From: Anaerolineae bacterium
GTDB taxonomy: Bacteria > Chloroflexota > Anaerolineae > S140-20
Length of the DNA stretch: 20,111 bases
Assembly (NCBI GenBank): GCA_027021705.1
Contig: JALUTT010000006.1
Span: 1-20,111, forward strand
Direction: 5' to 3'
The position numbers and the translations under genes were made by a program. This document shows, one piece after another, positions 1 through 19,037 of this stretch. Every line of letters begins with the position of its first letter. Position 1 is the first letter of the stretch. The notes below the pieces were generated by a model. The model was not told the DNA's origin. It did no database searches and saw nothing but the letters and a program-made list of their open reading frames with translations.

Positions 1-194
1 TCTACATTCGGACGATGGATGTGACGGGGGAGGTGATCCTGCCGGAGGGGGTGGAGATGGTGATGCCCGGGGACAATGTGACGATGCAGGTGAAGTTGAT
101 CGAGCCGGTGGCGATTGAGCCGGGGAGTCGGTTTGCCATTCGCGAGGGTGGCCTGACCGTCGGCGCCGGCGTCATCACCAAGATCATCCGTTAA
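1..194 (+). CDS. tuf: Elongation factor Tu, 3' end (partial, not in ORF track)
   Basis: Frame from nt 3 reads [63 protein letters not shown], the EF-Tu domain III C-terminus. TAA at 192-194, directly upstream of rpsJ. Confidence 0.98.
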
Positions 195-213
195 TCGGAA
201 TAGGATGGGGGGT

Positions 214-522
214 ATGGCCAAACAGAGAATCCGCATCCGACTGAAAGCCTACGATCACCGCATCCTGGACCAATCGGCGCGGCGCATCGTGGAGACGGCA
301 GAGCGGACGGGCGCGACGGTCGTCGGTCCGGTCCCTTTGCCCACCAAGATCGAGCGCTTCACGGTACGGCGGTCCACGTTCATTGACAAGGACTCTCACG
401 AGCACTTCGAGATCCGTACCCACAAGCGGTTGATTGACGTCATTGACCCGGACGCCAAGACCATTGATACGCTGATGCGGCTGAACCTGCCAGCGGGTGT
501 GGACATCGAGATCAAACTGTAG
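214..522 (+). CDS. rpsJ: 30S ribosomal protein S10
   Basis: [22 protein letters not shown]...GPVPLPT...[12 protein letters not shown]...[14 protein letters not shown] 214 preferred over 205. Confidence 0.98.
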
Positions 523-532
523 CGTGAGTGAA

Positions 533-663
533 GGGGGCGTTGGGCCTGGCTTCTGGGAAAACGGGGAGTGCAAGGCCCAACGTCCCCGGGGATGATGCAG
601 CGTTGGGAGAGGTTCCCCGTCCGGTTGGGAGCCAGCCGGGGAGGCACGACGCTGACAGTCCCT
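533..663 (+). other. Two long intergenic stem-loops (rpsJ-rplC spacer)
   Basis: 533-547 GGGGGCGTTGGGCCT pairs with 573-587 AGGCCCAACGTCCCC (one G-U). A second hairpin has 598-605/647-654 and 621-628/632-639 and ends just before the TAAGGAGG SD of rplC. Confidence 0.6.
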
Positions 664-677
664 GATAAGGAGGTACG

Positions 678-1376
678 ATGGGTAGTGTCACGAAGGGCCT
701 TCTGGGCCGTAAAGTGGGGATGACCCAGATCTTCGACGAGAACGGCGAGGTGGTGCCGGTCACGGTGATCGAAGCTGGCCCCTGTTGGGTGACCCAGGTG
801 AAGACCCTGGAGCGCGACGGCTACCGGGCGATCCAGATCGGCTTCGAGGAGCTGGAGCCGCGCAAAGCCCGACGCAAGCTGACCCGGGGACAACTGGGGC
901 ACTTGGGGCTGTTGAAGCCGGACGAGAAGCACCCTGAGCGCAAGCAGTTGGCCGAACCTGTGCCGCCCTTGCGCTACCTGCGGGAGATCCGGGTGAAGGA
1001 CGAGACGGCCTACCACGAAGGCCAGAAGCTCACCGTGGAGATCTTCCAGGTGGGGGAGCGGGTGGATGTGGTGGGCATTACCAAGGGGCGGGGCTTCGCC
1101 GGCACCATCAAGCGCCACGGTTTCCGGCGGCAGCCCAAGACCCACGGCCAGTCGGACCGGGAGCGCGCGCCGGGGTCCATCGGCGCGACCTCGACGCCCG
1201 GTCGCGTCTGGAAGGGAAAGCGGATGGCCGGCCGGATGGGGAACGCCCGGGTCACGGCCCAGAACCTGCTGGTGGCCCTGGTGGACCCGGAGCACAACCT
1301 GCTGGCCGTGCGCGGAAGCGTTCCCGGCCCTCGAGGTGGATTGGTCATCATCAAAGAGGCCCGTAAGCAAGGGTGA
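678..1376 (+). CDS. rplC: 50S ribosomal protein L3
   Basis: [58 protein letters not shown]. Strong SD TAAGGAGG. Confidence 0.98.
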
Positions 1377-1393
1377 TGAGGAGGGAAGGTCCG

Positions 1394-2017
1394 TTGCGAG
1401 TACCGGTCTATAGCATGGAAGGTGCCGTCGTCGGGGAGGTGGAGCTCCCTCCGAAGATTTTCCAGGCTCCCATCAACACCGCCTTGATGCACCAGGCGTT
1501 GGTGCGCCAGTTGGCCAACGCCCGTCAGGGCACCCACAAGACCAAGTCACGGGGGGAGGTCAACCGCACCAAAGCCAAGTGGTACCGTCAGAAGGGGACG
1601 GGGCGGGCCCGTCACGGGAGCCGCAACGCGCCCATCTTCGTCGGCGGGGGCATTGCCCACGGTCCCAAGCCGCGCAGCTACCGCCAGAAGATGCCCCGCA
1701 AGATGCGACGGGCGGCCCTGCGCTCGGCCCTCTCGGTGAAGGCGGCCGAGCAGCAGATCATCCTGGTGGACCAGCTCTCCTGGGACCGCCCCAGGACGCG
1801 GCAGATGGTGGAACTGCTGGACAACCTGAACGTGGAGAGCAGTGCCCTCATCCTGCTGGCGGAGAGGAACGAGGCGGTGGAGAAGTCGGCCAACAACCTC
1901 CCCGAGGTCAAGACGCTGCGTGCCAATTACCTGAACATCCGGGACCTGTTGAAGTACGACTACCTGTTGGTTCCTCTCGACTCGCTGCGGGTCATCGAGT
2001 CCATCCTCGGCGAGTAG
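1394..2017 (+). CDS. rplD: 50S ribosomal protein L4
   Basis: [13 protein letters not shown]...[37 protein letters not shown] 1394 (MRVPVY) chosen because it follows a GGAGG SD; ORF track starts at 1373. Confidence 0.97.
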
Positions 2018-2083
2018 GCGGGGGGAGCCGCACAGGGTTGGTGGGACCTGTGGATTCTGACACCTCGTTAAGGAGGGTTGGGG

Positions 2084-2386
2084 ATGGCAGATTTGCATCC
2101 TTATGAGGTCATCTTACGGCCTATCGTAACCGAGAAGAGCAACATCCAGGCCGATGAGTACAATCAGTACACCTTTGAGGTGGACCGGCGGGCCAACAAG
2201 CGGCAGATCAAAGAGGCGGTGGAGACCATCTTCGACGTGGAGGTCGTGCGGGTGAATGTGATCAATGTGCCCGCCAAGCGGGTCCGGCGTTGGGGCCGGC
2301 GTCCCGTGGTCCGGCGCTCCGGCTGGAAGAAGGCCATCGTCACGCTGGCGCCGGGCCACCGGATCGAGTTCTTCGAGGGCGTGTAA
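2084..2386 (+). CDS. rplW: 50S ribosomal protein L23
   Basis: ILRPIVTEKS...YTFEVDRRANKRQIKEAVETIFDVEV...WKKAIVTL. SD TAAGGAGG at 2069-2076. Confidence 0.98.
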   Translation: MADLHPYEVILRPIVTEKSNIQADEYNQYTFEVDRRANKRQIKEAVETIFDVEVVRVNVINVPAKRVRRWGRRPVVRRSGWKKAIVTLAPGHRIEFFEGV

Positions 2387-2421
2387 GCGGACAGGCATCG
2401 CAACAGGGAGTGGGGTGAACG

Positions 2422-3258
2422 ATGGGCATCAAAGTCTACAAGCCAACATCGCCCGGACGCCGTGGGATGACGGGCTACACCTTCGAGGAGATCACGCGGC
2501 GGGAGCCGGAGCGCAGCCTTCTGCGGCCTCTGCGCAAGCGGGCGGGTCGCAACTTCCAGGGCCGGATCACCGTCCGCCACCGGGGTGGCGGCCACAAGCG
2601 GCGCTACCGGTTGATTGACTTCAAACGGGACAAGGTTGGCATCCCGGCCAAGGTAACTTCCATAGAGTACGATCCCAACCGTTCGGCTCGCATCGCTTTG
2701 CTGACCTACGCCGACGGGGAGAAGCGGTACATCATCGCCCCCCTGGGGCTGCGGGTGGGGGATACGGTGATGAGCGGCCCCGATGCGGAGATCCGGGTGG
2801 GCAACGCGCTGCCCCTGGCCAACATCCCGTTGGGCACCCAGGTGCACAACGTGGAGCTCTATCCAGGCCGGGGGGGGCAGTTGGTGCGGGCGGCAGGGAC
2901 CTCGGCCCAGGTGCTGGCCAAAGAGGGGGGCTACGTCACCTTGCGCCTGCCCAGTGGCGAGGTACGGATGGTGCGCCAGGAGTGCATGGCGACCATCGGG
3001 CAGGTGGGGAACGTGGAGCACGGCAACATCAAGCTGGGCAAGGCGGGCCGCAAGCGCTGGCTGGGTATCCGGCCCACCGTGCGCGGTTCGGCGATGAGCC
3101 CCCGGGACCATCCCCACGGCGGGGGGGAGGGGCGGGCGCCCATCGGGCTGCCGGGACCCAAATCCCCGTGGGGGAAGCCCACCTTGGGGAAGAAGACCCG
3201 CCGCAACAAGGCGACGGACAAGTACATCATTCGACGGCGGGGGAAGCGCCGGCGCTAG
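2422..3258 (+). CDS. rplB: 50S ribosomal protein L2
   Basis: [58 protein letters not shown]. Confidence 0.99.
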
Positions 3259-3277
3259 GTTTAGTAGGGAAGAATCG

Positions 3278-3535
3278 GTGCCTGAGATATGCAGGTTCTA
3301 TGGGATTGTTATCTTTATGAACTACAATGACCACCCTCCGCCTCATTTTCACGCGAGATACCAGGATCAGGAAGTGGTGATCGAGATCCAGACAGGAATG
3401 GTGAGAGGTAGGATGTCGAAGCGGGCATTGCGTATGCTGTTCGAATGGTTGGAGAAGTATCAAGGGGATCTGATGGACAACTGGAGGCGTGCAGAGGAAC
3501 GGAGGCCATTGAAGAAAATACCTCCGCTGGTGTAG
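3278..3535 (+). CDS. DUF4160-family protein (putative DhiT-like toxin)
   Basis: MPEICRFYGIVIFMNYNDHPPPHFHARY...LMDNWRRAEERRPLKKIPPL has the MPxIxRFxGIxI...DHxPPHxH start and W...L.KI.PL end I recognise as DUF4160. GTG start, low GC, followed by a DUF2442-like gene. Confidence 0.9.
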   Translation: MPEICRFYGIVIFMNYNDHPPPHFHARYQDQEVVIEIQTGMVRGRMSKRALRMLFEWLEKYQGDLMDNWRRAEERRPLKKIPPLV

Positions 3536-3556
3536 GGTAGAGAGGCAATGGGAGAG

Positions 3557-3838
3557 ATGTTTCTCCATATCACAGATGTTACTTGGTTAGGCGGGTATAG
3601 ATTGAGGCTGACTTTTAGCGATGGTGTGGTCAAGGATGTGGATTTGCAGGGCGAATTGTACGGGGAGGTTTTTGAACCGCTGAAGGACCTGGATCGCTTC
3701 CGGCAAGTCGCTGTAAATCCTGAGACCAACACCATCGAGTGGCCCAATGGCGCAGATTTTGCGCCCGAGTACTTGTATGAAATCGGGGAAGAGCCCGAGG
3801 AGATTAGGCCCACGGCAACTGCTCCCATCGAGGGATGA
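3557..3838 (+). CDS. DUF2442-family protein (putative DhiA-like antitoxin)
   Basis: MFLHITDVTWLGGYRLRLTFSDG...G.VFEPLKD...F.QV.V....NTIEWPNGADFAPEYLY is the DUF2442 (NE0471 N-terminal-like) pattern. Alternative ATG at 3548. Confidence 0.9.
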   Translation: MFLHITDVTWLGGYRLRLTFSDGVVKDVDLQGELYGEVFEPLKDLDRFRQVAVNPETNTIEWPNGADFAPEYLYEIGEEPEEIRPTATAPIEG

Positions 3839-3865
3839 GGACGAGCAGAAAGGAGCCGGAGAACG

Positions 3866-4159
3866 ATGTCACGGTCGCTGAAAAAGGGACCTTACGTAGA
3901 CCCCAAGTTGGTCCGCAAGATCGAGGAGATGAACCGCCGGGGGGATAAGCGGGTGATCCGCACCTGGTCTCGCGACTCCACCATCCTCCCCCAGATGGTG
4001 GGGCACACCATCGCCGTCCACGACGGTCGCCGGCACGTGCCCATCTACATCACCGAGACGATGGTGGGGCACAAGCTGGGGGAGTTTGCCCCCACCCGTA
4101 CCTTCCGAGGGCACATCGTCAAGGAGAAGAAGACCAAAGCCCGCAAGAAGAAGCGGTAG
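3866..4159 (+). CDS. rpsS: 30S ribosomal protein S19
   Basis: [12 protein letters not shown]...[45 protein letters not shown]. Confidence 0.99.
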
Positions 4160-4182
4160 GCGGGTAGAAGGGGAACGAGGCT

Positions 4183-4533
4183 ATGGAAGAGTTCAAGGTC
4201 CGGGCAGTGGCTCGATACATCCCGATGTCCCCCCAGAAAGTGCGCCGGGTTATTGACCAGGTGCGTGGGTTAGGGGCCGATGAGGCTTTGGAGTTGTTGC
4301 GCTTCATGCCCCAGGCGGCGGCACGGCCTGTGGCCAAGGTCATCCGTTCGGCCATCGCCAACGCCGAGGATATTGGCCTGGTGCGGGAGGACCTCTACAT
4401 CGCCGAGATTCGGGCCGATGATGGCCCCACCCGCAAGTGGCGGCGGTTCGGGGCCCGCGGTCGGTTCAAGCCCATTCTGAGGCGCTCTTGCCACATCACC
4501 GTCGTGCTGGCCGAAGAGGCCGAGGAAGTGTAA
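4183..4533 (+). CDS. rplV: 50S ribosomal protein L22
   Basis: [22 protein letters not shown]...[10 protein letters not shown]...DDGPT.K...GARGR...HITVVL. Confidence 0.98.
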
Positions 4534-4552
4534 GCGCGGTAAGGAGGCAACG

Positions 4553-5215
4553 TTGGGACGCAAGGTACATCCATACGGTTTCCGCCTGGGCGTCATCCGA
4601 GACTGGAAGGCCCACTGGTTCGCCGAGGGGAAGGAGTACAAGAAGCTGCTGGAGGAGGACCTGGCCATCCGTGACTACCTGGAAAAGCAGTTGGCCCAGG
4701 CCGGCCTCTCCAATGTGGAGATCGAGCGCTTCCCCAACCAGGTCCAGGTCACCATTTGGACCGCCAAGCCGGGTGTGGTCATCGGACGGCGGGGTGCGGC
4801 GGTGAAGCAACTGCGGCGCGACCTGGAGAAGATGACGGGAAAGTCGGTGAAGATCGAGGTGGAAGAGGTGACCCAGCCGGACCTGGACGCCAAGCTGGTG
4901 GCCCGGAACATTGCGGCCCAACTGGAGCGGCGGATCTCCCACAGCCGGGCGATGAAGCAGGCGGTCCGTCAGGCGATGCGGGCGGGGGCCAAGGGCATCA
5001 AAGTGATGTGCAGCGGTCGTCTGGCCGGCGCCGAGATGGCCCGGCGCGAGTGGCAGATGGACGGCCGGGTGCCCCGTAACACGCTTCGGGCCGACATTGA
5101 CTTCGCCCGGGCCGAGGCGCTCACCACCTTCGGGCGCATCGGCGTCAAGGTGTGGATTTACAAAGGGGATGTGCTGCCGGAGGGTGAGCAAGAGGAAGAA
5201 GAAGCGGTTGCGTGA
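4553..5215 (+). CDS. rpsC: 30S ribosomal protein S3
   Basis: [15 protein letters not shown] motif [42 protein letters not shown] start after SD TAAGGAGG. Confidence 0.99.
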
Positions 5216-5386
5216 GCGGGCGGAGGAAGGACCAACAGGCGCTCTTCCTGAGACGGCTCTCTTGAGCGAGGCTTCGCTTGCCGAGGATGGGAGTTGGTCG
5301 GAGGAAGACGAAGCGTGGTCACACCTGCAGCAGGTGCCATCGTCCTAGTGCCATTTTCTGGATGAGCTTAGCAGGAGCGTCATACG

Positions 5387-5812
5387 ATGTTGATGCCAAA
5401 GCGCGTGAAATATCGGAAGCAGATGCGGGGTAGGATGAAGGGCCGGGCCTCGCGGGGGGTGGAAGTCTCCTTCGGGGAGTACGGCCTGCAGGCCCTGGAG
5501 CCGGCCTGGATCACCAGCCGGCAGATCGAGGCCGCCCGGCGTGCTATTGTCCGCTATGTGAAGCGGCGTGGCAAGGTCTGGATCCGCATCTTCCCCGACA
5601 AACCGGTGACCAAGAAGCCGGCCGAGACCCGGATGGGGAAGGGGAAGGGCTCTGTGGACCACTGGGTCGCCGTGGTGAAGCCGGGGCGCATCCTCTTCGA
5701 GATCGCTGGCGTCTCCGAAGAAGCGGCGCGGGAGGCGATGCGCCTGGCCTCTCACAAGCTTCCCATCAAAACCCAGTTCGTCACTCGCCACGACATAGGG
5801 ACGGAGGAGTAG
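5387..5812 (+). CDS. rplP: 50S ribosomal protein L16
   Basis: [52 protein letters not shown]. Confidence 0.99.
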
Positions 5813-5814
5813 GG

Positions 5815-6048
5815 ATGCACGCGCGAGAGATTCGGGCGATGACGACCGAGGAGATCGAAGCCCACCTGGACGAGGCCTATCAGCGCCTCTTCCGGCTTCG
5901 CTTCGATTGGGCTGCAGGGCAGCTCCGCGACAACAACCAGATCCGGGCCGTGAAGCGGGATATTGCCCGGATGAAGACTATTCTGCGGGAGCGCGAACTG
6001 GCGGCGATGATGGCCGCCTGGCAGGAAGGTGAGGGTGAGGAGGCATGA
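5815..6048 (+). CDS. rpmC: 50S ribosomal protein L29
   Basis: [12 protein letters not shown]...LFRLRF...GQL....[20 protein letters not shown]; lies between rplP and rpsQ. Confidence 0.97.
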
Positions 6049-6296
6049 AGAAGCGACGCAAGCGCCTGGTGGGTCGTGTCGTCAGCGACAAGATGGACAA
6101 GACCGTCGTCGTGCAGGTGGAGCGGATGAAGCGCCACCCCTTGTACGGCAAGGTGGTGCGGATCCGCAAGAAGTACAAGGCCCACGACGAGGAGAACGCC
6201 TGTCGAGAAGGCGACCTGGTGCGCATCGTGGAGTCGCGTCCCATCAGCAAGGAGAAGCGCTGGGTGGTCGAAGCGATCCTGGAGCGTGCCCGCTGA
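6045..6296 (+). CDS. rpsQ: 30S ribosomal protein S17
   Basis: [16 protein letters not shown]...HPLYGK....[10 protein letters not shown]....[22 protein letters not shown] overlap with rpmC. Confidence 0.99.
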
Positions 6297-6306
6297 GGAG
6301 CATGAG

Positions 6307-6451
6307 CCGGCCCCTCAGCCTCCCTCGCCGGAAGGGGCAGGGTGCTGGAGGGGCCGGAGGCTGGGAGGAGGTGTCGTTCAGAAGTGTGGGAGGGATCCGA
6401 AAAGCCTTGGCCGTAGGGGGTGGGATGCTCCCACAGTTTTGGACGGTACCT
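6307..6451 (+). other. Structured rpsQ-rplN spacer (two long hairpins)
   Basis: 6307-6316/6348-6357 form a perfect 10-bp stem. 6369-6392/6428-6451 form a 24-position stem with one mismatch and four G-U pairs. Confidence 0.65.
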
Positions 6452-6476
6452 GGGGAAGGACGGAAGGAGGACGACG

Positions 6477-6848
6477 ATGATTCAGCAAGAGAGCCGGCTG
6501 CGCGTGGCCGATAACACCGGTGCCAAGGAGATCCTGGTGATTCGGGTGTTGGGAGGGTCCAAGCGGCGCTACGGTCGGGTGGGCGATGTGGTCGTTGCCA
6601 CGGTGAAGCAGGCCACCCCCACGGGCTCGGTGAAGAAGAGCGACATCGTGCGGGCCGTCATCGTGCGCACCGCCAAAGAGTACCGCCGGCCCGATGGCTC
6701 CTACATCCGGTTCGATGACAACGCAGCGGTCATCCTGGATGGGTACACGCGGAATCCCAAGGGGACGCGCATCTTCGGCCCCGTGGCCCGGGAGCTGCGG
6801 GACAAGGGCTTCACGAAGATCGTCTCCCTGGCTCCAGAAGTCCTGTGA
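6477..6848 (+). CDS. rplN: 50S ribosomal protein L14
   Basis: [18 protein letters not shown]...[16 protein letters not shown]...[27 protein letters not shown] 6477 after AAGGAGG. Confidence 0.99.
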
Positions 6849-6862
6849 GGTAGGTAGGGGAT

Positions 6863-7222
6863 ATGGCCAGAAAACGTAAGGACGAGAAGAAGCGACGCCG
6901 GTTGCGGGTGAAGAAGGGGGACACGGTGCTGGTGATCAGCGGCGACGATCGGGGCCGGCGCGGCACCATCCTCCGGACGATCCCCAAGGAAGAGCGGGTG
7001 GTGGTGCAGGGGGTCAACATCGTTAAGAAGCACCAGCGGCCCATCCAGGCCGGTCGGGGCCAGGTCCGCGCGGGCATCATCGAGTTCGAGGCCCCCATCC
7101 ACGTCTCCAACGTGATGTTGGTTTGCCCCACCTGCGGGGAGGCCACCCGGGTGGGCTATCGCTTCAACGAAGAGGGCCGGAAGGTCCGCTACTGCAAGCT
7201 TTGCGAGGCGGATATTGACTAA
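6863..7222 (+). CDS. rplX: 50S ribosomal protein L24
   Basis: KOW motif VKKGDTVLVISGDDRG, VQGVNIVKKHQRP, EAPIHVSNVML, C-terminal CPTC...CKLC. Confidence 0.98.
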   Translation: MARKRKDEKKRRRLRVKKGDTVLVISGDDRGRRGTILRTIPKEERVVVQGVNIVKKHQRPIQAGRGQVRAGIIEFEAPIHVSNVMLVCPTCGEATRVGYRFNEEGRKVRYCKLCEADID

Positions 7223-7245
7223 GCACCTGGTGGGCCGTTGGGGCC

Positions 7246-7402
7246 TTTCGGCCCTGGAAGGGCCTCCTACACTGCCGGAAGGGCCTTCTACGCTGGATGT
7301 AGGAGGGCTTTCCTAAAGCCCGACCGGAATTTCGGCCCTGGAAGGGCCTCTGCCGGAAGGGCCTTCTACGCAGGGTGTAGGAGGGCTTTCCTAAAGCCCA
7401 AC
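7246..7402. repeat. Tandemly duplicated cluster of GTAG-type REP-like palindromes
   Basis: Copy 1 (7246-7321) and copy 2 (7330-7399) differ by a 6-nt indel and 2 substitutions. Units include minus-strand GTAGGA-GGCCCT-TCC-AGGGCC (7246-7270) and plus-strand GTAGGA-GGGCTTT-CCT-AAAGCCC (7299-7324, 7377-7402). Confidence 0.85.
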
Positions 7403-7440
7403 TGAGGATGCTGGAACGCTACGTAGAGGAGTGAGGCGCA

Positions 7441-7983
7441 ATGCCACGGTTGAAGGAGCGGTACCGCCAGGACGTGGTACCGGCGATGATGAAAGAGTTC
7501 GGCTACAAAAACGTGATGCAGGTTCCCCGCGTGGAGAAAGTCGTGGTCAACGTGGGGGTGGGCGAGGCGTTGGACAATCCCAAGGCGCTGGACCACACCG
7601 TGCAGGACATTGCCACCATCACCGGTCAGAAGCCGATCGTCACCCGGGCCCGAAAGTCCATCGCCGGTTTCAAGCTGCGGGCCGGTCGTGCCATCGGCGT
7701 CAAGGTCACCCTGCGCGGCCAGCGGATGTACGACTTCCTCGACCGACTCTTCAACGTGACCCTGCCTCGGCAGCGCGACTTCCGGGGGGTCTCCCCGGAT
7801 TCCTTTGATGGTCGGGGCAACTACACCTTGGGGCTCCGGGAGCAGTTGGTCTGGCCGGAGATTGACTACGACCAGATTGACAAGGTGCGGGGCATGGAGA
7901 TCACCATCGTCACCACGGCCAAGACCGATGAGGAAGGGCGGCGGCTGCTGGAACTGATGGGCATGCCCTTCCGACGCGCGTGA
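7441..7983 (+). CDS. rplE: 50S ribosomal protein L5
   Basis: [58 protein letters not shown]. Confidence 0.99.
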
Positions 7984-8046
7984 GCGGGAACCTGGAGAGG
8001 GACCGGTCGTAACTGTTCGCAACGTTGAGCCAGCGAGGGAGGACCT

Positions 8047-8229
8047 GTGGCAAGGAAATGCATGATCTACCGGGAAAAACGGCGCAAGTATAAGGTTCGG
8101 GTGCGGAACCGCTGCATCCGGTGCGGGCGGCCCCGGGGGTACATCCGCCGCTTCCAACTGTGCCGGATCTGCTTCCGGGAGCTGGCCCTGGAAGGGGTGA
8201 TCCCCGGCGTGACCAAGGCCAGCTGGTAG
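8047..8229 (+). CDS. rpsN: 30S ribosomal protein S14, short zinc-binding (type Z) form
   Basis: 60 aa, [43 protein letters not shown] start after GGAGG. Confidence 0.98.
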
Positions 8230-8320
8230 GCCCGGGGCGGAGGGCCCGGATCGGGCATGATCCGGTGCCTGTCACCGCATGACCGATGGACGCTGATGAA
8301 TTCGCAGAGGATAGAAAGCT

Positions 8321-8728
8321 ATGACTGTGACGGATCCCATTGCTGATATGCTGACCCGCATTCGCAACGCCTTGATGGCCGGTCATACCTCCGTTGCGAT
8401 GCCCAGCTCCAAGATGAAGGTGGCCATCGCCCGCATTTTGAAGGATGAGGGCTTCATCGAGGATTTCGTCGTCGGCGATGAGCGGCCCCAGCCTGTCCTG
8501 GTCATCCGGCTCAAGTACGTGGGCCGGCGGCGGCATCGCCGCCCGGTCATCACCGGGTTGAAGCGGGTGAGCAAGCCCGGACGGCGGATTTACGTGGGCA
8601 AGCGGGAGATCCCCTGGGTGCTGAGCGGGATGGGCATCGCCATCCTCTCCACCCCTAAGGGGGTTCTGACCGATCAACAGGCCCGTCGTCTGGGCGTCGG
8701 GGGCGAGGTCCTCTGCTACGTCTGGTAG
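8321..8728 (+). CDS. rpsH: 30S ribosomal protein S8
   Basis: [56 protein letters not shown]. Confidence 0.99.
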
Positions 8729-8841
8729 GTCGTGGCCGGAGGCTTGGCGGCAGCGGAGGGTCCGACGCCGGGCTGTGCAAGACCGGTGGCCGGGCCGGCG
8801 CAACGTGATGCCGCTGAGCGGCTGTTTCGAGGAGGTGTGTT

Positions 8842-9390
8842 GTGTCGCGCATTGGTCGGAAACCGATCCCCATCCCCAAGGGTGTAGAAGTCGAGATTCG
8901 GGGCAACGTCGTCCGGGTCCGAGGGCCTAAGGGGGAGCTCACCCGAGAGTTTCACCCCGATATGACCATCGTCCAGGAGGATGGTTACTTGCTGGTCCGG
9001 CGTCCGACGGACCAGCGCCACCACCGGGCCCTCCACGGGTTGACGCGGGCCCTGTTGAACAACATGGTGATCGGCGTCTCCACGGGCTTCCGCAAGGTGC
9101 TGGAGATCGTCGGCGTGGGTTATCGGGCCCAGGTGCGGCCCGACGGCTCGCTCCTGCTCAACCTGGGCTTCTCCCACCCGGTGGAGGTCAAGCCGCCGGA
9201 GAATGTTACCTTCCATATGGAACCCCGATCGAAGGAGATCGTCATCGAGGGGATTGACAAGCAGGTGGTCGGGCAGGTAGCGGCGGAGATCCGTCGCCTC
9301 CGCCCCCCGGAACCCTACAAGGGGAAGGGGATTCGCTACAAGGGTGAGCATGTCCGGCGTAAGGCCGGCAAGGCCGGTAAGGCCAAGTAG
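8842..9390 (+). CDS. rplF: 50S ribosomal protein L6
   Basis: MSRIGRKPIPIP, LEIVGVGYRA, RPPEPYKGKGIRY..E.VRRKAGK. GTG start after GAGGAGGT. Confidence 0.99.
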   Translation: MSRIGRKPIPIPKGVEVEIRGNVVRVRGPKGELTREFHPDMTIVQEDGYLLVRRPTDQRHHRALHGLTRALLNNMVIGVSTGFRKVLEIVGVGYRAQVRPDGSLLLNLGFSHPVEVKPPENVTFHMEPRSKEIVIEGIDKQVVGQVAAEIRRLRPPEPYKGKGIRYKGEHVRRKAGKAGKAK

Positions 9391-9420
9391 CCGGGAAATC
9401 GCGTACGTGGTGAGAGGGTT

Positions 9421-9789
9421 ATGGATAAGAACAAGCAGAAACGGCTGGCACGACTGCGGCGGCATCGCCGGGTGCGCAAACGGGTCTTCGGGACGCCGGA
9501 GCGCCCTCGGTTGAATGTCTACCGAAGCCTGACCCACATCTACGCTCAGATCATTGACGACACCGTGGGCCACACGCTGGCCTCGGCCTCGACCATTGAC
9601 CGGGAGATCCGAGAGCGCGTCGCCGGATTGCCGAAGACGGAGCAAGCCCGGATCGTAGGCCGGGTTCTGGCGGAGCGGGCCCTGGCCAAAGGGGTCACCA
9701 AAGTCGCCTTCGACCGAGGCGGGTACAAGTACCACGGTCGCGTCAAGGCGCTGGCCGAAGGAGCACGCGAAGGAGGGCTGGACTTCTGA
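9421..9789 (+). CDS. rplR: 50S ribosomal protein L18
   Basis: [57 protein letters not shown]. Confidence 0.99.
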
Positions 9790-10337
9790 TGAACGGAAAC
9801 CGATTGCGCGACCGGGAAGTCTTCGAGGAGCAGCGGGAGGAGCTCGACGAGCGGGTGGTGGACATCAAGCGGGTGGCCAAGGTGGTGAAGGGTGGCCGTC
9901 GCTTCGCCTTCCGCGTCGTCGTCGTCGTCGGAGACAACAAGGGCCGGGTAGGCGTGGGCGTGGGCAAGGCCCGGGGGGTGCCCGATGCCATCCGCAAGGG
10001 GTTGGAGCGGGCCCGGCGGAATATGATCCGGGTGCCGCTGGTGGATACCACCATCCCCCACGAGGTGATCGGCAAGCAGGGCGGGGCCAAGGTCCTGCTC
10101 AAGCCGGCCTCGCCGGGCACGGGCGTGATCGCCGCCGGCGGCGTCCGGGCCGTCCTGGAGGCGGCCGGCGTGAAGGACATCCTGACCAAGTCCCTGGGCA
10201 GCTCCAACGTCTTGAACGTCGTCTACGCCACCCTCAACGGGCTGTCCCAGCTCAAGTCGGTCGAAGAGGAGGCGGCCCGACGGGGCCTGCCCAAAGAGCG
10301 GGTGATGCCATTCTGGAGTCGGCGCTATGTCCGCTGA
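9789..10337 (+). CDS. rpsE: 30S ribosomal protein S5
   Basis: [54 protein letters not shown] overlap with rplR. Confidence 0.99.
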
Positions 10338-10533
10338 GAAGAAGCTACGGATCAAGCTGGTGAAGAGTCCCATCGGCTACTCCCGACGCCAGAAAGCGAC
10401 GGTGCGGGCGTTGGGGCTGCGCCGGATGCACCAGACCGTCGTCCGCGAGGATACGCCGGTGATCCGGGGCATGATCGCCAAGGTGAGCCATCTGGTGCAG
10501 GTGGAGACGGTGCCGGCCGAGGAGGAAGCCTAG
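10327..10533 (+). CDS. rpmD: 50S ribosomal protein L30
   Basis: [11 protein letters not shown]...[17 protein letters not shown]...[16 protein letters not shown]. Confidence 0.98.
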
Positions 10534-10594
10534 CCGGCCCATTTCCCTGCCGCCGTGGGACCCGTGACGTCTGAGGCAAGCAGGAGTGAGGTGG

Positions 10595-11074
10595 ATGAAA
10601 TTACACGAACTGCGTCCCCCCGAGGGGGCGAAGAAGAGGCGGAAGCGAGTGGGACGAGGGATTGCGGCCGGCCAGGGCAAGACGGCAGGGCGTGGTACCA
10701 AGGGGCAGAACGCCCGATCGGGCGGTGGGGTCCCTCCCTACTTTGAGGGCGGGCAGCTCCCCGTCGTGCGCAAGCTCCCCTTCGCTCGTGGCGTCGGGTT
10801 CCGCAACCCCAACCGAATTCGCTTCACCCCGGTCAACCTGAAGCGGCTGAAGGGCTTTCAGGCGGGCGACGAGGTGTCGCCGGAAACGCTGGCGGCGGCC
10901 GGGATCATCAAGAAGGCCAGCGAGTTGGTCGTCATCCTGGGCGATGGGGACCTGGATCGTCCCCTGCACTTCAAAGCCCATCGCTTCTCGGCCAGCGCCC
11001 GCCGGAAGATCGAGGCGGCCGGGGGCACCATCGAGGAACTCCCCTACCGGCGGGGAGGCGCTCGGACCCGATAG
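10595..11074 (+). CDS. rplO: 50S ribosomal protein L15
   Basis: MKLHELRPPEGAKKRRKRVGRG...GKTAGRGTKGQNARSG....FEGGQLP...KIEAAGG. ATG 10595. Confidence 0.98.
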   Translation: MKLHELRPPEGAKKRRKRVGRGIAAGQGKTAGRGTKGQNARSGGGVPPYFEGGQLPVVRKLPFARGVGFRNPNRIRFTPVNLKRLKGFQAGDEVSPETLAAAGIIKKASELVVILGDGDLDRPLHFKAHRFSASARRKIEAAGGTIEELPYRRGGARTR

Positions 11075-11102
11075 GACGAGGGGAGCATAGAGGGGGAGTC
11101 GT

Positions 11103-12422
11103 ATGATCCAGGCTGTCCGCAACGCCTTTACCCTGCCCGATCTGCGCAGGAAATTGCTCTTCACCCTGGCCATCCTGATCATCTACCGGCTGGCCGCCCA
11201 CGTTCCCGTGCCGGGTGTCAACCAGGCGGCCCTGAAGAACCTGCTGCAGGGCGGCGGAGCCGGTGGTCAGTTGGTGGGGCTGCTGGACATCCTATCCGGT
11301 GGGGCTGTGGCCACCTTCTCCGTGATGGCGATGGGGGTCTACCCCTACATCACGGCTTCCATCATCTTCCAGCTCCTGGTGCCCATTATCCCCAACCTGG
11401 AGCAGATGCTGAAGGAGGAGGGTGAGGAGGGCCGCAGAAGGCTGGAACGGTACACCTATTACCTGACCGTCCCGCTGGCCGCCCTGCAGGCCATCGGGCA
11501 GGTGCGGCTCTTCGGAAGCATCGGTGGGGAGCCAATTCTTCCCCATTTCGGCTTCAGCGGCCCTCAGTTGCTGCCCACCTTTGCCACCATCGCGGCGATG
11601 ACGGCGGGTACGATGTTCGCCATCTGGCTGGGCGAACTGATCAGCGAGCAGGGGATCGGCAACGGAGTCTCCCTGATCATCTTCGGCGGGATCGTCGCCC
11701 GCATCCCCCAGAACGTGGTGAACATCCTGGTTCAGCAAGGGGTGGGCGGGCTGCTCCTCTTCTTGGCCATCACCGCCATCACCGTCTTCGTCATCGTCGT
11801 CGTCCAGGAGGGGCAGCGCCGTATCCCGGTCCAGTACGGAAAGCGGGTACGAGGGCGTAGGGTTTACGGCGGTCAAGCGACCCATATCCCCCTGCGGGTG
11901 AACACGGCGGGGATGATCCCGCTCATCTTCGCCCAGTCCATCCTGACCTTCCCGGCCATCATCGCCCAGTTCTTCATCACCAGCACCAACCCAACGGTGG
12001 CCAGCTTCGCCCGGTCGGTGACCAACATCTTCAGCGGCACCAGCGGCTGGTACGCGCCGATGTACTTCCTGATGGTCGTGGCTTTCACTTACTTCTACAC
12101 GGACGTGCTGGTGCAGCAGCAGGACCTGCCGGGAGTGTTGCAACGGCAGGGCGGATTCATCCCCGGCATTCGACCGGGAAGGCGGACGGCCGAGTACATC
12201 ACGGCGGTCTACCGGCGCATTACGCTGGTGGGTGCTCTCTTCCTGGGGGCGGTGGCCGTGTTGCCTTTCATCGTGGGCCTCTTCGTGCGCTCGCCCCAGG
12301 GCACGCCCACGCTGTTGATCACCAGCGCCGGCCTGCTCATCGTGGTCGGCGTGGTCGTGGACACGATGCGTCAACTGGAAGCCCAGTTGCTGATGCGTCA
12401 CTACGAGAGCTTCCTGCGGTGA
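11103..12422 (+). CDS. secY: Preprotein translocase subunit SecY
   Basis: LRRKLLFTL, MGVYPYITASII.QLL, WLGELISEQGIGNGVSLIIF, RRIPVQY, GGFIPGIRPG; multiple hydrophobic segments. Confidence 0.99.
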   Translation: MIQAVRNAFTLPDLRRKLLFTLAILIIYRLAAHVPVPGVNQAALKNLLQGGGAGGQLVGLLDILSGGAVATFSVMAMGVYPYITASIIFQLLVPIIPNLEQMLKEEGEEGRRRLERYTYYLTVPLAALQAIGQVRLFGSIGGEPILPHFGFSGPQLLPTFATIAAMTAGTMFAIWLGELISEQGIGNGVSLIIFGGIVARIPQNVVNILVQQGVGGLLLFLAITAITVFVIVVVQEGQRRIPVQYGKRVRGRRVYGGQATHIPLRVNTAGMIPLIFAQSILTFPAIIAQFFITSTNPTVASFARSVTNIFSGTSGWYAPMYFLMVVAFTYFYTDVLVQQQDLPGVLQRQGGFIPGIRPGRRTAEYITAVYRRITLVGALFLGAVAVLPFIVGLFVRSPQGTPTLLITSAGLLIVVGVVVDTMRQLEAQLLMRHYESFLR

Positions 12423-12501
12423 TCCTGAGGGCGATGACCATCAAGTGTCGCACGTGCTCTCAGGTGGTCAGAACGCCAAACGGAGAAGATGGAGGCGGGA
12501 G

Positions 12502-13170
12502 GTGGGCCGCTACATCGTCTTGTTGGGAGCGCCGGGGGCGGGGAAGGGGACTCAGGCCGGTATTCTCTCCCAGGAGATGGGGATTCCCCACGTGGCGACG
12601 GGTGACCTCTTCCGTTACCATCTGAAGGAAGGGACCGAGCTGGGGAGGCTGGCGAAAGCCTATATGGAGCGGGGGGACCTGGTCCCCGACGAGGTGACGG
12701 TGGGGATGGTCCGGGAGCGGCTGAGCCAACCCGACTGTGCCCGAGGGGTGATCCTGGACGGCTTTCCCCGTACCATCGCTCAGGCCGAGGCGCTGGATGC
12801 CCTGCTGGCCGAGCGGGGAGAGCGGGTGACCATCGTCCCCTACATCAGGGTGAGCGAGGAGGTCCTGTTGCAGCGGCTGGGAGGGCGGTGGACTTGTCGC
12901 CGGTGTGGGCGGGTCTACCACATCCTGTTCGACCCGCCGCCGGAACCGGGACGTTGCGAGTGCGGTGGGGAGCTTTACCAGAGGCCCGACGATACGCCCG
13001 AGACCCAGCGACGCCGGATTGAAGTCTACATGGAGCAGACCAGCCCGCTCATCACCTACTATCGAGAGCGCGGGCTGCTGGTCGAGATTGATGGGGAGCA
13101 GGATATTGACGCGGTCCACGAGGCGTTGGCGGCCGCCATTGAGACGGCCTCGGTTCACCAGGACCCGTGA
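12502..13170 (+). CDS. adk: Adenylate kinase (Cys-containing LID)
   Basis: P-loop LLGAPGAGKGTQA, GDLVPDE, ILDGFPRT..QA, LID CRRC...CEC, QRPDD. GTG 12502 after GGAGG. Confidence 0.98.
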   Translation: MGRYIVLLGAPGAGKGTQAGILSQEMGIPHVATGDLFRYHLKEGTELGRLAKAYMERGDLVPDEVTVGMVRERLSQPDCARGVILDGFPRTIAQAEALDALLAERGERVTIVPYIRVSEEVLLQRLGGRWTCRRCGRVYHILFDPPPEPGRCECGGELYQRPDDTPETQRRRIEVYMEQTSPLITYYRERGLLVEIDGEQDIDAVHEALAAAIETASVHQDP

Positions 13171-13942
13171 GGCGGTTGTCTACCTGAAAACGGAAGAGGA
13201 GCTGGCGCTGATGCGCCAGGCTGGCCGGATCGTGGCCGAGGTATTGGCCGCCGTGCGGGAGCGCGTGGCTCCCGGCGTGACGACCGGTGAGCTGGACGCG
13301 CTGGCCGAGGAGATCATTCGCGGCCACGGGGCGATCCCCTCGTTCAAGGGGTACCCCAACAGCCTGCCTGAGGGGCCGCCCTTCCCGGCGACCATCTGCG
13401 CCTCGGTCAACGACGAACTGGTCCACGGCATCCCCGGCCCCCGGGTGCTGCAGGAAGGGGACATCATCTCGGTGGATGTGGGGGCCATCTACCAGGGCTT
13501 CCACGGCGACGCGGCCATCACCATCCCGGTGGGGGAGATCAGCGAGGAGGCCCAGCGGTTGCTGGAGGTGACGGAACAGGCCCTCTACGTGGGCATCGCC
13601 CAGGCCCGGTTAGGGAACCGGACCGGCGACATCGCCTGGGCTATCCAGCAGTATGTGGAATCCCACGGCTTCTCCGTCGTGCGGGAGTACACCAGTCACG
13701 GCATCGGCCGTGAAATGCACGAGGGATTCCAGATGCTGAACGTGGGCCGTCCAGGGCGGGGGCTGCCCTTGCGCCCCGGCATGACCATCGCCCTGGAACC
13801 GATGGTCAACGCGGGAACGTGGAAGACGCGGCTGCTGTCGGATCAGTGGACGGTGGCGACGGCCGATGGCCGGCTCTCCGCCCACTTTGAGCATACCATC
13901 GCCATCACCAACGGCGAGGCGGAGATCCTGACCCGACTGTGA
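13139..13942 (+). CDS. map: Type I methionine aminopeptidase (start uncertain)
   Basis: YLKTEEELALMRQAG, CASVNDELVHGIP, DVGA...GFHGDAA.T, HGIG..MHE, ALEPMVN, SAHFEHT. Candidate starts: TTG 13139, TTG 13106, ATG 13091, ATG 13211. Confidence 0.95.
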   Translation: MRRPRFTRTREAVVYLKTEEELALMRQAGRIVAEVLAAVRERVAPGVTTGELDALAEEIIRGHGAIPSFKGYPNSLPEGPPFPATICASVNDELVHGIPGPRVLQEGDIISVDVGAIYQGFHGDAAITIPVGEISEEAQRLLEVTEQALYVGIAQARLGNRTGDIAWAIQQYVESHGFSVVREYTSHGIGREMHEGFQMLNVGRPGRGLPLRPGMTIALEPMVNAGTWKTRLLSDQWTVATADGRLSAHFEHTIAITNGEAEILTRL

Positions 13943-14020
13943 ATCCAAGATGGGCTAGGACCCTCCCGCGAGTTCGCACCGCGTGACCTGCGGGAAGGTG
14001 ACAGAAGGGAGAGAAGTGCG

Positions 14021-14134
14021 ATGAAAGTCTCAGCATCGGTGAAGCGCCGTTGTCCCAAGTGTAAGATCGTGCGACGTCGGGGGGTTGTCTACGTGATCTG
14101 CGAGAACCCCAAGCACAAGCAGCGACAGGGATAG
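14021..14134 (+). CDS. rpmJ: 50S ribosomal protein L36, Zn-ribbon form (not in ORF track)
   Basis: Translated by hand: [37 protein letters not shown] (37 aa). Confidence 0.98.
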
Positions 14135-14179
14135 GGGTCCGAAGGGGGGCACGCCCTTGAGTTCATTCAGGAGGGAGCG

Positions 14180-14569
14180 ATGGCTCGTATCGCGGGGGTA
14201 GACCTGCCCCGTAACAAACGTGTGGAAATCGGTCTGACCTACATCTATGGGATCGGACGCTCTTTGAGCAACGAGATCTTGCGCCAGGCCGGCGTGGATC
14301 CCAACACCCGGGTGAAGGACCTCTCGGAAGAGGAGATCACCCGCCTGCGCGAGATCATCGAGCGCAACTATCGGGTGGAGGGAGACCTCCGGCGGGAAGT
14401 GCAGATGAACATCAAGCGGCTGATGGAGATCGGCTGCTATCGGGGGCTGCGCCACCGGCGGAACCTGCCGGTGCGGGGGCAGCGGACGCGGACCAATGCC
14501 CGGACCAAACGAGGTCCTCGCAAGACCGTCCCCGGGCGTGGCCGCCGGCGAGGGATGAAGAAGAAGTAG
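14180..14569 (+). CDS. rpsM: 30S ribosomal protein S13
   Basis: [53 protein letters not shown]. Confidence 0.99.
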
Positions 14570-14599
14570 GGCGTCAGCAGGGAGTGGGAAGGAGGCGAT

Positions 14600-15001
14600 A
14601 TGGCACGAAGACGAGGTACAGGACGGCGTCGTGGGCCGCGTAAGGTGCGGAAGAACGTGCCGCATGGGCAGGCACACATCCATGCCACGTTCAACAACAC
14701 CATCGTCACGATGACCGACCTGGAAGGGAATGTGATCAACTGGGCGAGTGCGGGCACCGTGGGGTTCAAAGGGTCCCGCAAGAGCACGCCCTATGCCGCC
14801 CGCCTGGCTGCCGAGCAGGCGGCCAAGGTGGCGATGGACAACGGGATGCGGGAGGTGGACATCTACGTGAAGGGGCCTGGTCCGGGGCGGGAGGCGGCCA
14901 TCCGGGCCATCCAGGCCGCGGGCCTCAAGGTCCTCTCCATCACCGATGTCACGCCTATCCCCCACAACGGTTGTCGCCCGCCCAAGAAGCGAAGAGTCTG
15001 A
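14600..15001 (+). CDS. rpsK: 30S ribosomal protein S11
   Basis: [58 protein letters not shown]. Confidence 0.99.
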
Positions 15002-15019
15002 TCTGAGGTTGGAGGACCT

Positions 15020-15664
15020 ATGGCGAGGTACACAGGACCGGTTTGCAAGCTGTGCCGTCGGGCTGGGGAAAAGCTCTATCTGAAGGGGGAGCGCTGCTAC
15101 ACGCCCAAGTGCGCCCTGGAGCGGAAGGGGTATGCGCCGGGGCAGCACGGGCGGGAGGCGCAGTACAGCCGTCGGCGTGCCTCCGACTATGCCCGGCAGC
15201 TGCGGGAGAAGCAGAAGGCCCGGCGGATCTATGGCGTGCTGGAGCGGCAGTTCCGGCGCTACTACAAGCAGGCCCTCAAGAAGCGGGGAATGACCGGCGA
15301 GAACCTGCTGATTATCCTGGAGAGCCGGCTGGACAACGTGATCTATCGGCTGGGGTTTGCCGATTCACGAGCCCAGGCCCGACAACTGGTGCAGCACGGT
15401 CATTTTGTCGTCAACGGGCGGCGGACCAACATCCCGTCTTACCTGGTGAAGCCCGGCGATCAGATCATCGTGCGGGAAGGGAGCCGCAAGCGACGCTACT
15501 TCAAGGAACGGGCTCAACTGCTGAGCGACTACGTGCAGCGCGTGCCGGCCTGGCTGGTCCTCGACCCTCAGCAGATGTCCGCCCGGGTGTTGCGGCTTCC
15601 CACCCGTGAGGAGATTGATCTGCCCTTGCAGGAACAGTTGATCGTTGAGTACTACTCTCGCTAG
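15020..15664 (+). CDS. rpsD: 30S ribosomal protein S4
   Basis: [24 protein letters not shown]...[32 protein letters not shown]. Confidence 0.99.
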
Positions 15665-15750
15665 TCCGCGATCGGGGCCGAGGGGGCTGCTGGAAAACGC
15701 CCCGGTCGTCGGCAGGTAGGGGCAAAGGATCAGGGAATTCCAGAGGCGCC

Positions 15751-15805
15751 ATTTGCCATCTGCAATTTGCAATCTGCAATTTGCAATTCGCAATTCGCAC
15801 TCGCA
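15751..15805. repeat. 7-bp tandem repeat ATYYGCA (7 full units plus 1 partial)
   Basis: atttgcc atctgca atttgca atctgca atttgca attcgca attcgca ctcgca, flanked by the inverted repeat 15733-15746/15807-15820. Confidence 0.92.
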
Positions 15806-15846
15806 CCCTCTGAGATTCCCAACGGGTACCTGGGGAGGATGGTCTG

Positions 15847-16821
15847 TTGACTACGACGTTGGTTTTGCCCAAGATTGAGACCGATGTCATCTCGCGGAAC
15901 TATGGCCGGTTCATCATCGGCCCTTTGGAGAGCGGCTACGGCATCACGCTGGGGAATGCCCTGCGGCGTGTGTTGCTCAGCTCCCTGCCGGGGGCAGCCG
16001 TGACCTCCATCCGCGTGAGTGACGTGCATCACGAGTTTTCGGAGATCCCCCACGTCCGGGAGGATATGACCCAGTTGATCCTCCAGATCAAGCAGCTGCG
16101 GTTGATCCTGCACGGCGAGGAGCCGGTGCGGATGCGCCTGGACGTGCAAGGGGAGGGAACGGTGGTGGCGGCTGACATCCAAGCGCCGGCCGAGGTGGAG
16201 ATCGTCAACCCTGACCTCTACCTCTTCACCGTGGACGACGAGAACGCCCAGCTTGAGATCGAAATGACGGTGGAGAAGGGTCGGGGATACTCGCCCGCCG
16301 AGGAGCGGGGACGGCTTCCCATTGGCGAACTCCCGGTGGATGCCATCTTCAGCCCTGTCCGCAAGGTCAACTACAACGTGGAGCGGACGCGGGTGGGGCA
16401 GATCACCGACTACGATCGGCTGGTGATGGAGATCTGGACCGATGGGACGATCCGTCCCAGCGAGGCGCTGAGCGAGGCGGCCAAGATCCTGCTCACCCAC
16501 CTGCGCCTCATCGCCGGCGTAAGCGAAGAAGAAGAGCCCGTCGAAGAGGGAGAAGAGGTCGAGGAGGCCATTCCTCAGGAGCTCTACGAGCGGCCCATCG
16601 AGGAACTGGACCTGAGCGTGCGCGTCTTCAACTCCCTCAAGCGAACGGGCATCACCAGCGTCGGTGAGGTGCTGGAGATGATGGAGCGGGGCGAGGAGGC
16701 GATGCTCACCATTCGCAACTTCGGTGAGAAGTCCCTCCAGGAGCTGAAGGAGAAGCTGCGCGCCCGGGGCTACCTGGCCTATCTGGAGCGCAAGCAGATG
16801 GCTGCTGAGAAGGAAGCGTGA
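15847..16821 (+). CDS. rpoA: DNA-directed RNA polymerase subunit alpha
   Basis: [38 protein letters not shown], alpha-[20 protein letters not shown]...[13 protein letters not shown] start after GGGGAGG. Confidence 0.99.
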
Positions 16822-16843
16822 AGCATCGGGGAGGACTGAGAGG

Positions 16844-17230: not shown

Positions 17231-17255
17231 CGGGTCGGGCGGCACGAGGCGCACC

Positions 17256-18029: not shown

Positions 18030-18033
18030 TAGC

Positions 18034-18905: not shown

Positions 18906-18998
18906 TCGGTGGCCCCGGCATCGGCTTGGGAGAGCCGGTGTTGAGGGGACCTTCCCAGCCCCGCCACTCCTACGGCGGGGAAGCCCAAGAGACCTTTT

Positions 18999-19037
18999 CG
19001 CCCCGCCGGCTTCACGGCGGGGCGTTCTATTCCCTTT
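18999..19037 (+). terminator. Putative intrinsic terminator of the r-protein superoperon
   Basis: Perfect 10-bp GC stem CGCCCCGCCG (18999-19008) / CGGCGGGGCG (19015-19024), 6-nt loop, then an imperfect U-tract TTCTATTCCCTTT. Confidence 0.7.

Follow-up and report, generated by a model that had tools for sequence, protein, structure and literature searches.

A DUF4160/DUF2442 toxin-antitoxin-like gene pair between rplB and rpsS in an Anaerolineae ribosomal protein operon

The rplB and rpsS genes of an Anaerolineae bacterium (GCA_027021705.1, contig JALUTT010000006.1) are separated by 607 nt (3259-3865, + strand), and the ORF list and the sequence place two intact, co-oriented open reading frames within this spacer, a DUF4160 toxin-like gene (ORF1) followed by a DUF2442 antitoxin-like gene (ORF2). 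All coordinates refer to the window, the whole 20,111-nucleotide stretch of DNA that was analyzed. We consider it probable that an intact DUF4160/DUF2442 cassette landed after the rplB stop codon by recent horizontal transfer and is passively carried there as a selfish or near-neutral toxin-antitoxin passenger. The pair would represent a further case of a known family in a rare location rather than a new system, and suggests that a core essential operon can take up an intact toxin-antitoxin-like cassette and remain unbroken.

The rplB-rpsS junction in the window and in relatives

In the window, translation genes follow one another on the plus strand; the series opens with the 3' end of tuf, followed 10 nt later by rpsJ, and continues through rplC, rplD, rplW, rplB, rpsS, rplV, rpsC, rplP, rpmC, rpsQ, rplN, rplX, rplE, rpsH, rplF, rplR, rpsE, rplO, secY, adk, map, rpsM, rpsK, rpsD, rpoA, rplQ, truA, rplM, rpsI and lexA. 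The S10-type order rpsJ-rplC-rplD-rplW-rplB-rpsS-rplV-rpsC-rplP-rpmC-rpsQ is preserved on one strand according to both the ORF list and Pfam, which agree with the preliminary description in placing the two ORFs inside this cluster, and the DUF4160/DUF2442 pair is its sole interruption. The genes rplB and rpsS are neighbors in a gene order that ranks among the most conserved in bacteria.

Both genes flanking the insert are intact. The rplB gene (ribosomal protein L2; 2422-3258, + strand; Pfam Ribosomal_L2_N at E 3.5e-38 and L2_C at E 1e-55) retains its C-terminus and stop codon, with an L2 tail that agrees with the tails in the nearest relatives, and rpsS (ribosomal protein S19; 3866-4159, + strand; Pfam Ribosomal_S19 at E 5.7e-38) is likewise uninterrupted. 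Between them lie a 19-nt spacer (3259-3277, + strand) with a weak Shine-Dalgarno (SD)-like GGGAAG, ORF1 (3278-3535, + strand; 85 aa from a GTG start; PF13711), a second spacer (3536-3556, + strand) bearing the SD-like motifs GAGAGG and GGGAGAG, ORF2 (3557-3838, + strand; 93 aa; PF10387) and a final spacer of 27 nt (3839-3865, + strand) containing AAAGGAG. An alternative ATG at 3548 would extend ORF2 to 96 aa and shorten the ORF1-ORF2 spacer from 21 nt to 12 nt; with either start, the two small, adjacent and co-oriented genes display the layout of a type II toxin-antitoxin module. The arrangement first described, two small co-oriented ORFs set off by spacers of 19 nt and 27 nt, is exact, and the 27 nt ahead of rpsS are probably the original rplB-rpsS spacer together with the rpsS ribosome-binding site.

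The same junction was then compared in related genomes. A genome scan with the L2 protein of the window yielded at least 594 stretches encoding a relative, and the best 80 of 594 loci were kept; the top L2 matches among these belong to a Caldilineae MAG (84%) and to Anaerolineales or Anaerolineae MAGs (81-82%), which assigns the window to an Anaerolineae/Caldilineae-like Chloroflexota genome, itself absent from the matches. Searches by tblastn with the window proteins show that the relatives share the same S10-type gene order. At all 80 loci the L2-S19 gap, corrected for unaligned termini, is short (median 19.5 nt, maximum 98 nt), and the rplB-rpsS spacers read base by base in 15 relatives span 14-75 nt, most of them 14-32 nt. 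Neither the DUF4160 nor the DUF2442 protein was recovered near rplB by tblastn at any of these 80 best related loci (best L2 84%), a set that could have missed closer relatives sharing the insertion. Since the C-terminus of L2 resembles that of relatives and the 27 nt before rpsS resemble an ordinary SD-bearing spacer, the sequence places the insertion point of the cassette directly after the rplB stop codon.

Across 984 junctions of 13 junction types in the 80 related genomes, eight gaps exceeded 250 nt. Six of these were inspected: in four, the gap is an in-frame low-complexity tail of S17, S3 or L24, and the remaining two are S10-L3 spacers with short ORFs only. The other two gaps longer than 250 nt, at loci L008 and L014, are both S10-L3.

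The composition of the pair sets it apart from its surroundings. GC3 is 0.64 in ORF1 and 0.60 in ORF2, while all 31 other genes or ORFs scored in the window lie at 0.77-0.91, and the codon adaptation index (CAI), referenced to the ribosomal genes of the window, is 0.35-0.38 for the pair (0.35 for ORF1) versus 0.58-0.78 in the comparison genes, namely secY, adk and, with leave-one-out scoring, 21 ribosomal genes. The 581-nt insert has a GC content of 0.511, whereas 581-nt windows elsewhere average 0.648 (sd 0.024) with a minimum of 0.585. On recount, the local GC counts given initially also proved exact, with 26/60 at 3301-3360 and 27/60 at 3541-3600 versus 45/60 in rplB at 3061-3120. Because both GC3 and CAI deviate and none of the 80 related loci carries the pair, the DUF4160/DUF2442 pair is, by these sequence measures, foreign to the host genome, and its unameliorated composition indicates a recent arrival. 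The horizontal acquisition first proposed from GC counts is thereby upheld by codon-level composition and by the absence of the pair from 80 of 80 best related loci.

The 607-nt spacer contains the two ORFs only, with no transposase or integrase gene, and among 16 direct and 12 inverted repeat pairs none brackets the insert, nor is there a target duplication. A transposon or cassette with defined ends was rejected on account of this lack of bracketing repeats. No Rfam family matched anywhere in the window.

The two proteins and their family

Both proteins belong to the Pfam families initially assigned to them. ORF1 matches PF13711 with 74 bits (cut-off 23; E 1.1e-20) over profile positions 1-64 of 65, and ORF2 matches PF10387 with 57.1 bits (cut-off 23.9; E 2.1e-15) over positions 1-69 of 72. 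The more specific label of DhiT and DhiA given in the preliminary description holds at the superfamily level but not at the equivalog level, as ORF1 scores 65 bits against a cut-off of 100 for the NCBIfam equivalog DhiT (NF048015) and ORF2 scores 36.7 bits against a cut-off of 200 for DhiA (NF048016). From these profile scores, the window pair is classed as DhiTA relatives and not as equivalogs.

The N-terminus of ORF1, MPEICRFYGIVIF, contains the invariant columns P2, R6, F7 and G9 in an alignment of 46 sequences (ORF1 and 45 homologues), in which ORF1 retains all 20 invariant columns. Its first 13 residues form two strands in the predicted structure (pLDDT 95.5). As these residues carry both invariant columns and modelled strands, alignment and model support GTG 3278 as the start codon. 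In the protein collection ORF1 is stored as a 72-aa protein beginning at ATG 3317, and an exact-sequence look-up of the 85-aa M-start form found no entry there. The ORF1 sequence matched nothing in the PDB at E <= 1, and a fold search with the confident ORF1 model returned no PDB entry at E <= 0.001, the best TM by query being 0.40.

The start of ORF2 is probably ATG 3557, giving 93 aa, because 41 aligned homologues share the N-terminal MFLH; the ORF1-ORF2 spacer would therefore be 21 nt. The protein collection also stores ORF2 as 93 aa. ORF2 keeps every invariant column of its subfamily alignment, and its model has a pLDDT of 86.5, falling to a mean of 52-54 in the last two residue blocks, where the C-terminal tail is also variable across homologues. 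Pfam assigns DUF2442 alone to ORF2, with no DNA-binding domain. The ORF2 model superimposes on the N-terminal DUF2442 domain of NE0471 from Nitrosomonas europaea (PDB 2auw) with a TM of 0.73 and an rmsd of 1.6 over 77 columns at 30% identity, and the corresponding sequence match has an E of 0.004. NE0471 is larger (170 aa), and ORF2 spans its residues 8-82 only, with nothing matching the remainder. The extra C-terminal part of NE0471 is presumably a helix-turn-helix (HTH) domain. The earlier remark that the DUF2442 protein lacks an HTH such as that of NE0471 agrees with these alignments, in which ORF2 matches DhiA positions 2-71 of 160 and only the N-terminal domain of NE0471. A short, HTH-less antitoxin is thus correctly described here but is not special to this locus, being the rule in a subfamily whose 41 homologues measure 84-108 aa.

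Experimental precedents exist for several members of this family. In Dickeya dadantii 3937, the dhiTA genes (DUF4160/DUF2442) encode a toxin that alone inhibits growth, whereas the pair is not toxic, as reported for both Dickeya dadantii and E. coli (PMC8198452). The window pair shares with dhiTA the DUF4160 plus DUF2442 combination, the toxin gene in first position and the small size and adjacency of the genes; it differs in that dhiTA, as described in that report, is co-transcribed and autoregulated from its own promoter (PMC8198452), while neither a promoter-like site nor a DNA-binding domain was detected for the window pair. The nearest tested relative is the 'Persistence Enhancing Module' of the Thermus thermophilus plasmid pTthSNM3-3d, which lies downstream of rep and is reported to raise plasmid persistence; deletion of its second ORF gave no transformants and deletion of its first ORF did, and the ORFs are described as having no visible effect in E. 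coli (PMC12724237). The resemblance in architecture is close, with a toxin of 86-87 aa encoded first, an HTH-less DUF2442 protein of 91-92 aa, a spacer of 10 nt and a co-oriented position downstream of another gene (rep, after a 104-nt gap) (PMC12724237), at an identity to the window pair of 42% for the toxin and 35% for the antitoxin. An addiction role is plausible for the Thermus module, which resides on a plasmid; the window copy, by contrast, lies in a chromosomal ribosomal operon. DUF4160 has also been described as an effector domain of NsnC proteins of the Menshen antiphage system, and no confident structural homologue is reported for the domain (PMC12065111). ORF1 has the same Pfam domain and similarly lacks a confident structural homologue; in NsnC, however, DUF4160 is fused into a multi-domain defence protein (PMC12065111), while ORF1 is a stand-alone protein of 85 aa without a PADLOC match.

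The family is abundant. A word-indexed search returned 1983 clusters of ORF1 homologues; of the 120 listed, almost every one measures 85 aa, the best non-self match among them is 81% identical, and the named ones come from Anaerolineae, Thermodesulfobacteriota, KSB1, Bacteroidota and one archaeon. An exhaustive search with ORF1 gave 4428 representative clusters at E <= 0.001, of which 725 reach E <= 1e-10. ORF2 homologues fall into 2974 clusters, with non-self matches among those listed being 65-81% identical. For 20 of the first 39 listed non-self ORF1 matches, counted by eye, the longest contig has the identical size to that of a listed ORF2 match, suggesting that these ORF1 and ORF2 matches sit on the same contigs. 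The two domains are also found fused, as Pfam detects DUF4160 and DUF2442 in one protein in 10 of 19 longer homologues and the ESM Atlas contains a cluster of 52 fused DUF4160-DUF2442 proteins of ~170 aa; an ESM Atlas feature search without PF13711 gave no usable match. The fusions lend indirect support to a putative neutralizing interaction between the toxin-like and antitoxin-like proteins. Members occur on 36 plasmid records (best identity 48.2%), including three Thermus plasmids at 42.4%, and on 4 phage records, and PADLOC assigned neither window protein to a family at E <= 0.01. Judged by homology, the family is very large and mobile, and the window pair is an ordinary member of its short-antitoxin subfamily.

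Transcription and translation signals

A sigma-70-type promoter scan with a threshold of 9 of 12 or better found no site in 2400-4600 or in 3050-3560. Applied to positions 1-20000, the same scan returned three sites; one lies upstream of lexA at 19044-19072 and matches perfectly (12 of 12), and the others, elsewhere, score 9 of 12. Recovery of the perfect lexA-upstream site indicates that the scan works on the DNA of this window. When the threshold was relaxed in 3050-3560, the best candidate (8 of 12 at 3300) lay inside ORF1 and was rejected as its driver. A weak or non-sigma-70 promoter may be present within the 3' end of rplB. No terminator-like site was found on the plus strand in 2400-4600. 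As neither a promoter-like site nor a plus-strand terminator was detected, the pair is likely co-transcribed with the ribosomal genes. Scans of the region therefore bear out the initial observation of an insert devoid of promoter, terminator, transposase and target duplication. Autoregulation through binding of the antitoxin to a promoter of its own does not fit this locus, where no promoter-like site lies upstream, the antitoxin-like protein consists of DUF2442 only and ORF1 begins 19 nt from the rplB stop codon.

Translation signals differ between the two genes. Measured as the predicted duplex with an assumed canonical anti-SD, SD strength is -4.8 kcal/mol for ORF1, the second-weakest SD-like match among the starts scored, and -6.4 or -7.3 kcal/mol for ORF2, depending on the choice of start. 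The corresponding value for rpsS is -8.2 kcal/mol, and most ribosomal genes of the window range from -8 to -15 kcal/mol. From these predicted strengths, the toxin would be translated at a low level and the antitoxin at a somewhat higher one.

Explanations for the insertion

We propose that a ~580-bp cassette landed, recently and by horizontal transfer, immediately behind the rplB stop codon, within the short spacer that separates rplB from rpsS. The cassette would have consisted of an intact DUF4160 toxin-like gene and a gene for a short DUF2442 antitoxin-like protein, both of the DhiTA superfamily and of the same subfamily as the Thermus module, and would have brought no detectable promoter or terminator and spared the rpsS ribosome-binding site; given these features, it most likely travels as a passive part of the long ribosomal-protein transcript. 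The GTG start and weak SD of ORF1, together with rare codons in both genes, would keep toxin output low, and the ATG start and somewhat stronger SD of ORF2 would provide antitoxin in excess. Most likely, the pair acts as a toxin-antitoxin passenger of the ordinary kind, selfish or close to neutral, and is tolerated because its insertion breaks nothing. An arrangement seen in one genome only gives no sign of selection for position and fits a neutral as well as a selected insertion; we do not regard the pair as a component of ribosomal operon control that is conserved and under selection. The str-S10-spc-alpha cluster is described as occasionally entered by small foreign segments, such as nrdHEF inside the rpoBC operon (PMC8046335). 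The insertions named in that account are located in the rpoBC operon or in the intervals between operons, and rplB/rpsS is not mentioned in it (PMC8046335); judged by titles and abstracts, our search of the open-access literature found no report of a toxin-antitoxin pair at rplB-rpsS or elsewhere within a ribosomal protein operon.

Several other readings of the locus were weighed against this one. The pair could be no working toxin-antitoxin module here but harmless or domesticated small proteins, or proteins with another function, riding the transcript. Such a reading would accommodate a confident ORF1 model without a PDB fold match, the Thermus ORFs that are reported to have no visible effect in E. 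coli (PMC12724237) and scores under the DhiT and DhiA equivalog cut-offs for both proteins. However, all subfamily-invariant residues are retained in both proteins, the linkage of the two domains is tight and extends in some proteins to fusion, and three separate reports indicate that family members act as toxins or effectors (PMC8198452, PMC12065111, PMC12724237), making a non-toxin-antitoxin function unlikely.

Less probable still is that the insert is not fixed in the genome, being either an assembly artefact produced by a chimeric join or a minority allele or strain variant. The source is a metagenome-type contig, and composition shifts sharply at the gene boundaries. Furthermore, the exact 72-aa DUF4160 protein is found on 1 contig, as compared to 2 for exact L2, 5 for S19 and 6 for L22, from which the insert may be polymorphic or assemblies may break there. 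The DUF2442 protein shows a related pattern: its 93-aa form is on 1 contig, and its C-terminal 77 residues are identical on a second contig (7,143 bp), where a 78-aa form is called from an internal TTG. This second contig is nevertheless independent evidence that the DUF2442 sequence exists. Both junctions fall within a spacer that normally measures 14-75 nt, the flanking genes and both inserted ORFs are intact with the rpsS ribosome-binding site kept, and a chimeric join would rarely rejoin the same operon 580 bp later. With two clean junctions inside a spacer of ~25 nt, the sequence makes misassembly unlikely.

The preliminary description had favored a role as a sensor of ribosome-synthesis shut-off, in which the promoterless pair reports transcription of the ribosomal operon, and a stop caused by the stringent response or by phage allows a labile antitoxin to decay and the toxin to halt growth or abort infection. 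The wiring permits such a role, as the locus lacks a promoter-like site and a terminator and the antitoxin lacks a DNA-binding domain; the C-terminal tail of the antitoxin is variable and modelled with low confidence, and the Menshen antiphage system is described as having DUF4160 among its effector domains (PMC12065111). Against it, the arrangement occurs in one genome and at 0 of 80 best related loci, the unameliorated composition indicates a recent arrival, and no PADLOC defence model matched. Moreover, any toxin-antitoxin pair with a labile antitoxin responds to a global transcription stop, and the position of this pair therefore adds no specific evidence for a sensor. None of our results favors the sensor, which we regard as very improbable; the selfish or neutral passenger, offered initially as the alternative, fits the data better.

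Equally remote is a cassette kept through its dependence on the ribosomal transcript, acting as a growth-rate-coupled or abortive-infection switch within the S10 operon, where the lack of a promoter and of a DNA-binding antitoxin would let the toxin-antitoxin balance track transcription of the ribosomal operon. If the position were selected, a toxin would be coupled to ribosome synthesis in a novel manner; the present evidence gives no support for this. As the passively carried passenger that we prefer, the pair would place a toxin gene on one of the most abundant transcripts of the cell, and hence provide a natural test of whether weak translation signals alone keep a toxin harmless.

Translation starts and transcription of the pair

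The stored version of ORF1 (3278-3535), the DUF4160 toxin-like member of the pair, is a 72-aa protein starting at the ATG at window position 3317 and missing 13 conserved N-terminal residues; the family alignment therefore supports the GTG at 3278 as the start codon. ORF2 (3548-3838), the DUF2442 antitoxin-like member, is recorded in the protein collection as a 93-aa product starting at 3557; a second, 7,143-bp contig carries a 78-aa version that starts at an internal TTG.

The end of tuf and rpsJ lie only 10 nt apart (194-205), and the S10-type genes therefore appear to be continuous with the upstream str/tuf unit, placing the promoter that drives the pair potentially beyond the window. Like the window's pair, the experimentally studied short-antitoxin pair of Thermus plasmid pTthSNM3-3d (L081, 452-2047) is co-oriented with and lies 3' of another gene, rep, at a gap of 104 nt. 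It may be common for such pairs to rely on the gene before them for their transcription.

A repeat unit and long spacers in the ribosomal cluster

The spacer between rplX and rplE (7223-7440) spans 218 nt, whereas its median length among 73 relatives is 23 nt, and houses two copies, at about 7243-7320 and 7330-7400, of a GC-rich, hairpin-forming repeat unit of about 70-78 nt. Its core, GGAAGGGCCTTCTACGC, occurs in two exact copies and a third with two mismatches within this spacer, and a search of the whole window allowing up to 3 mismatches returned four matches versus 0.12 expected by chance. The spacer has a folding energy of -110.3 kcal/mol (z -3.8). This repeat resembles a small element of the REP or MITE type, another apparent entrant into the ribosomal cluster.

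Three further spacers are unusually long in the window relative to the medians in relatives, which were drawn from the best 80 of at least 594 loci: rpsJ-rplC (523-677; 155 nt versus 55 nt), rpsC-rplP (5216-5386; 171 nt versus 19.5 nt) and rpsQ-rplN (6297-6476; 180 nt versus 30 nt). No Rfam family was detected in any of these three. Large intergenic gaps are mimicked in the gap survey by long low-complexity C-terminal tails (about 96-208 aa, with a high content of Ala, Pro, Glu or Lys) on S17, S3 and L24 in three MAGs, two from Dehalococcoidia and one from Anaerolineaceae, located at 7323-7950 in locus L042, 6127-6513 and 7410-7715 in L029, and 7785-8136 in L015, the Anaerolineaceae locus.

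The lexA region and tandem repeats

A LexA-family gene (19105-19806) is closely preceded by a strong terminator-like hairpin with 10 GC pairs (18999-19024) and, after the hairpin, a perfect TTGACA-17-TATAAT promoter (19044-19072). Short tandem arrays, GTGGTCAC-like and CCTTGCC (12.6 copies), occupy 19806-19946 downstream of lexA, and seven tandem copies of ATTTGCA lie between rpsD and rpoA (15751-15799).
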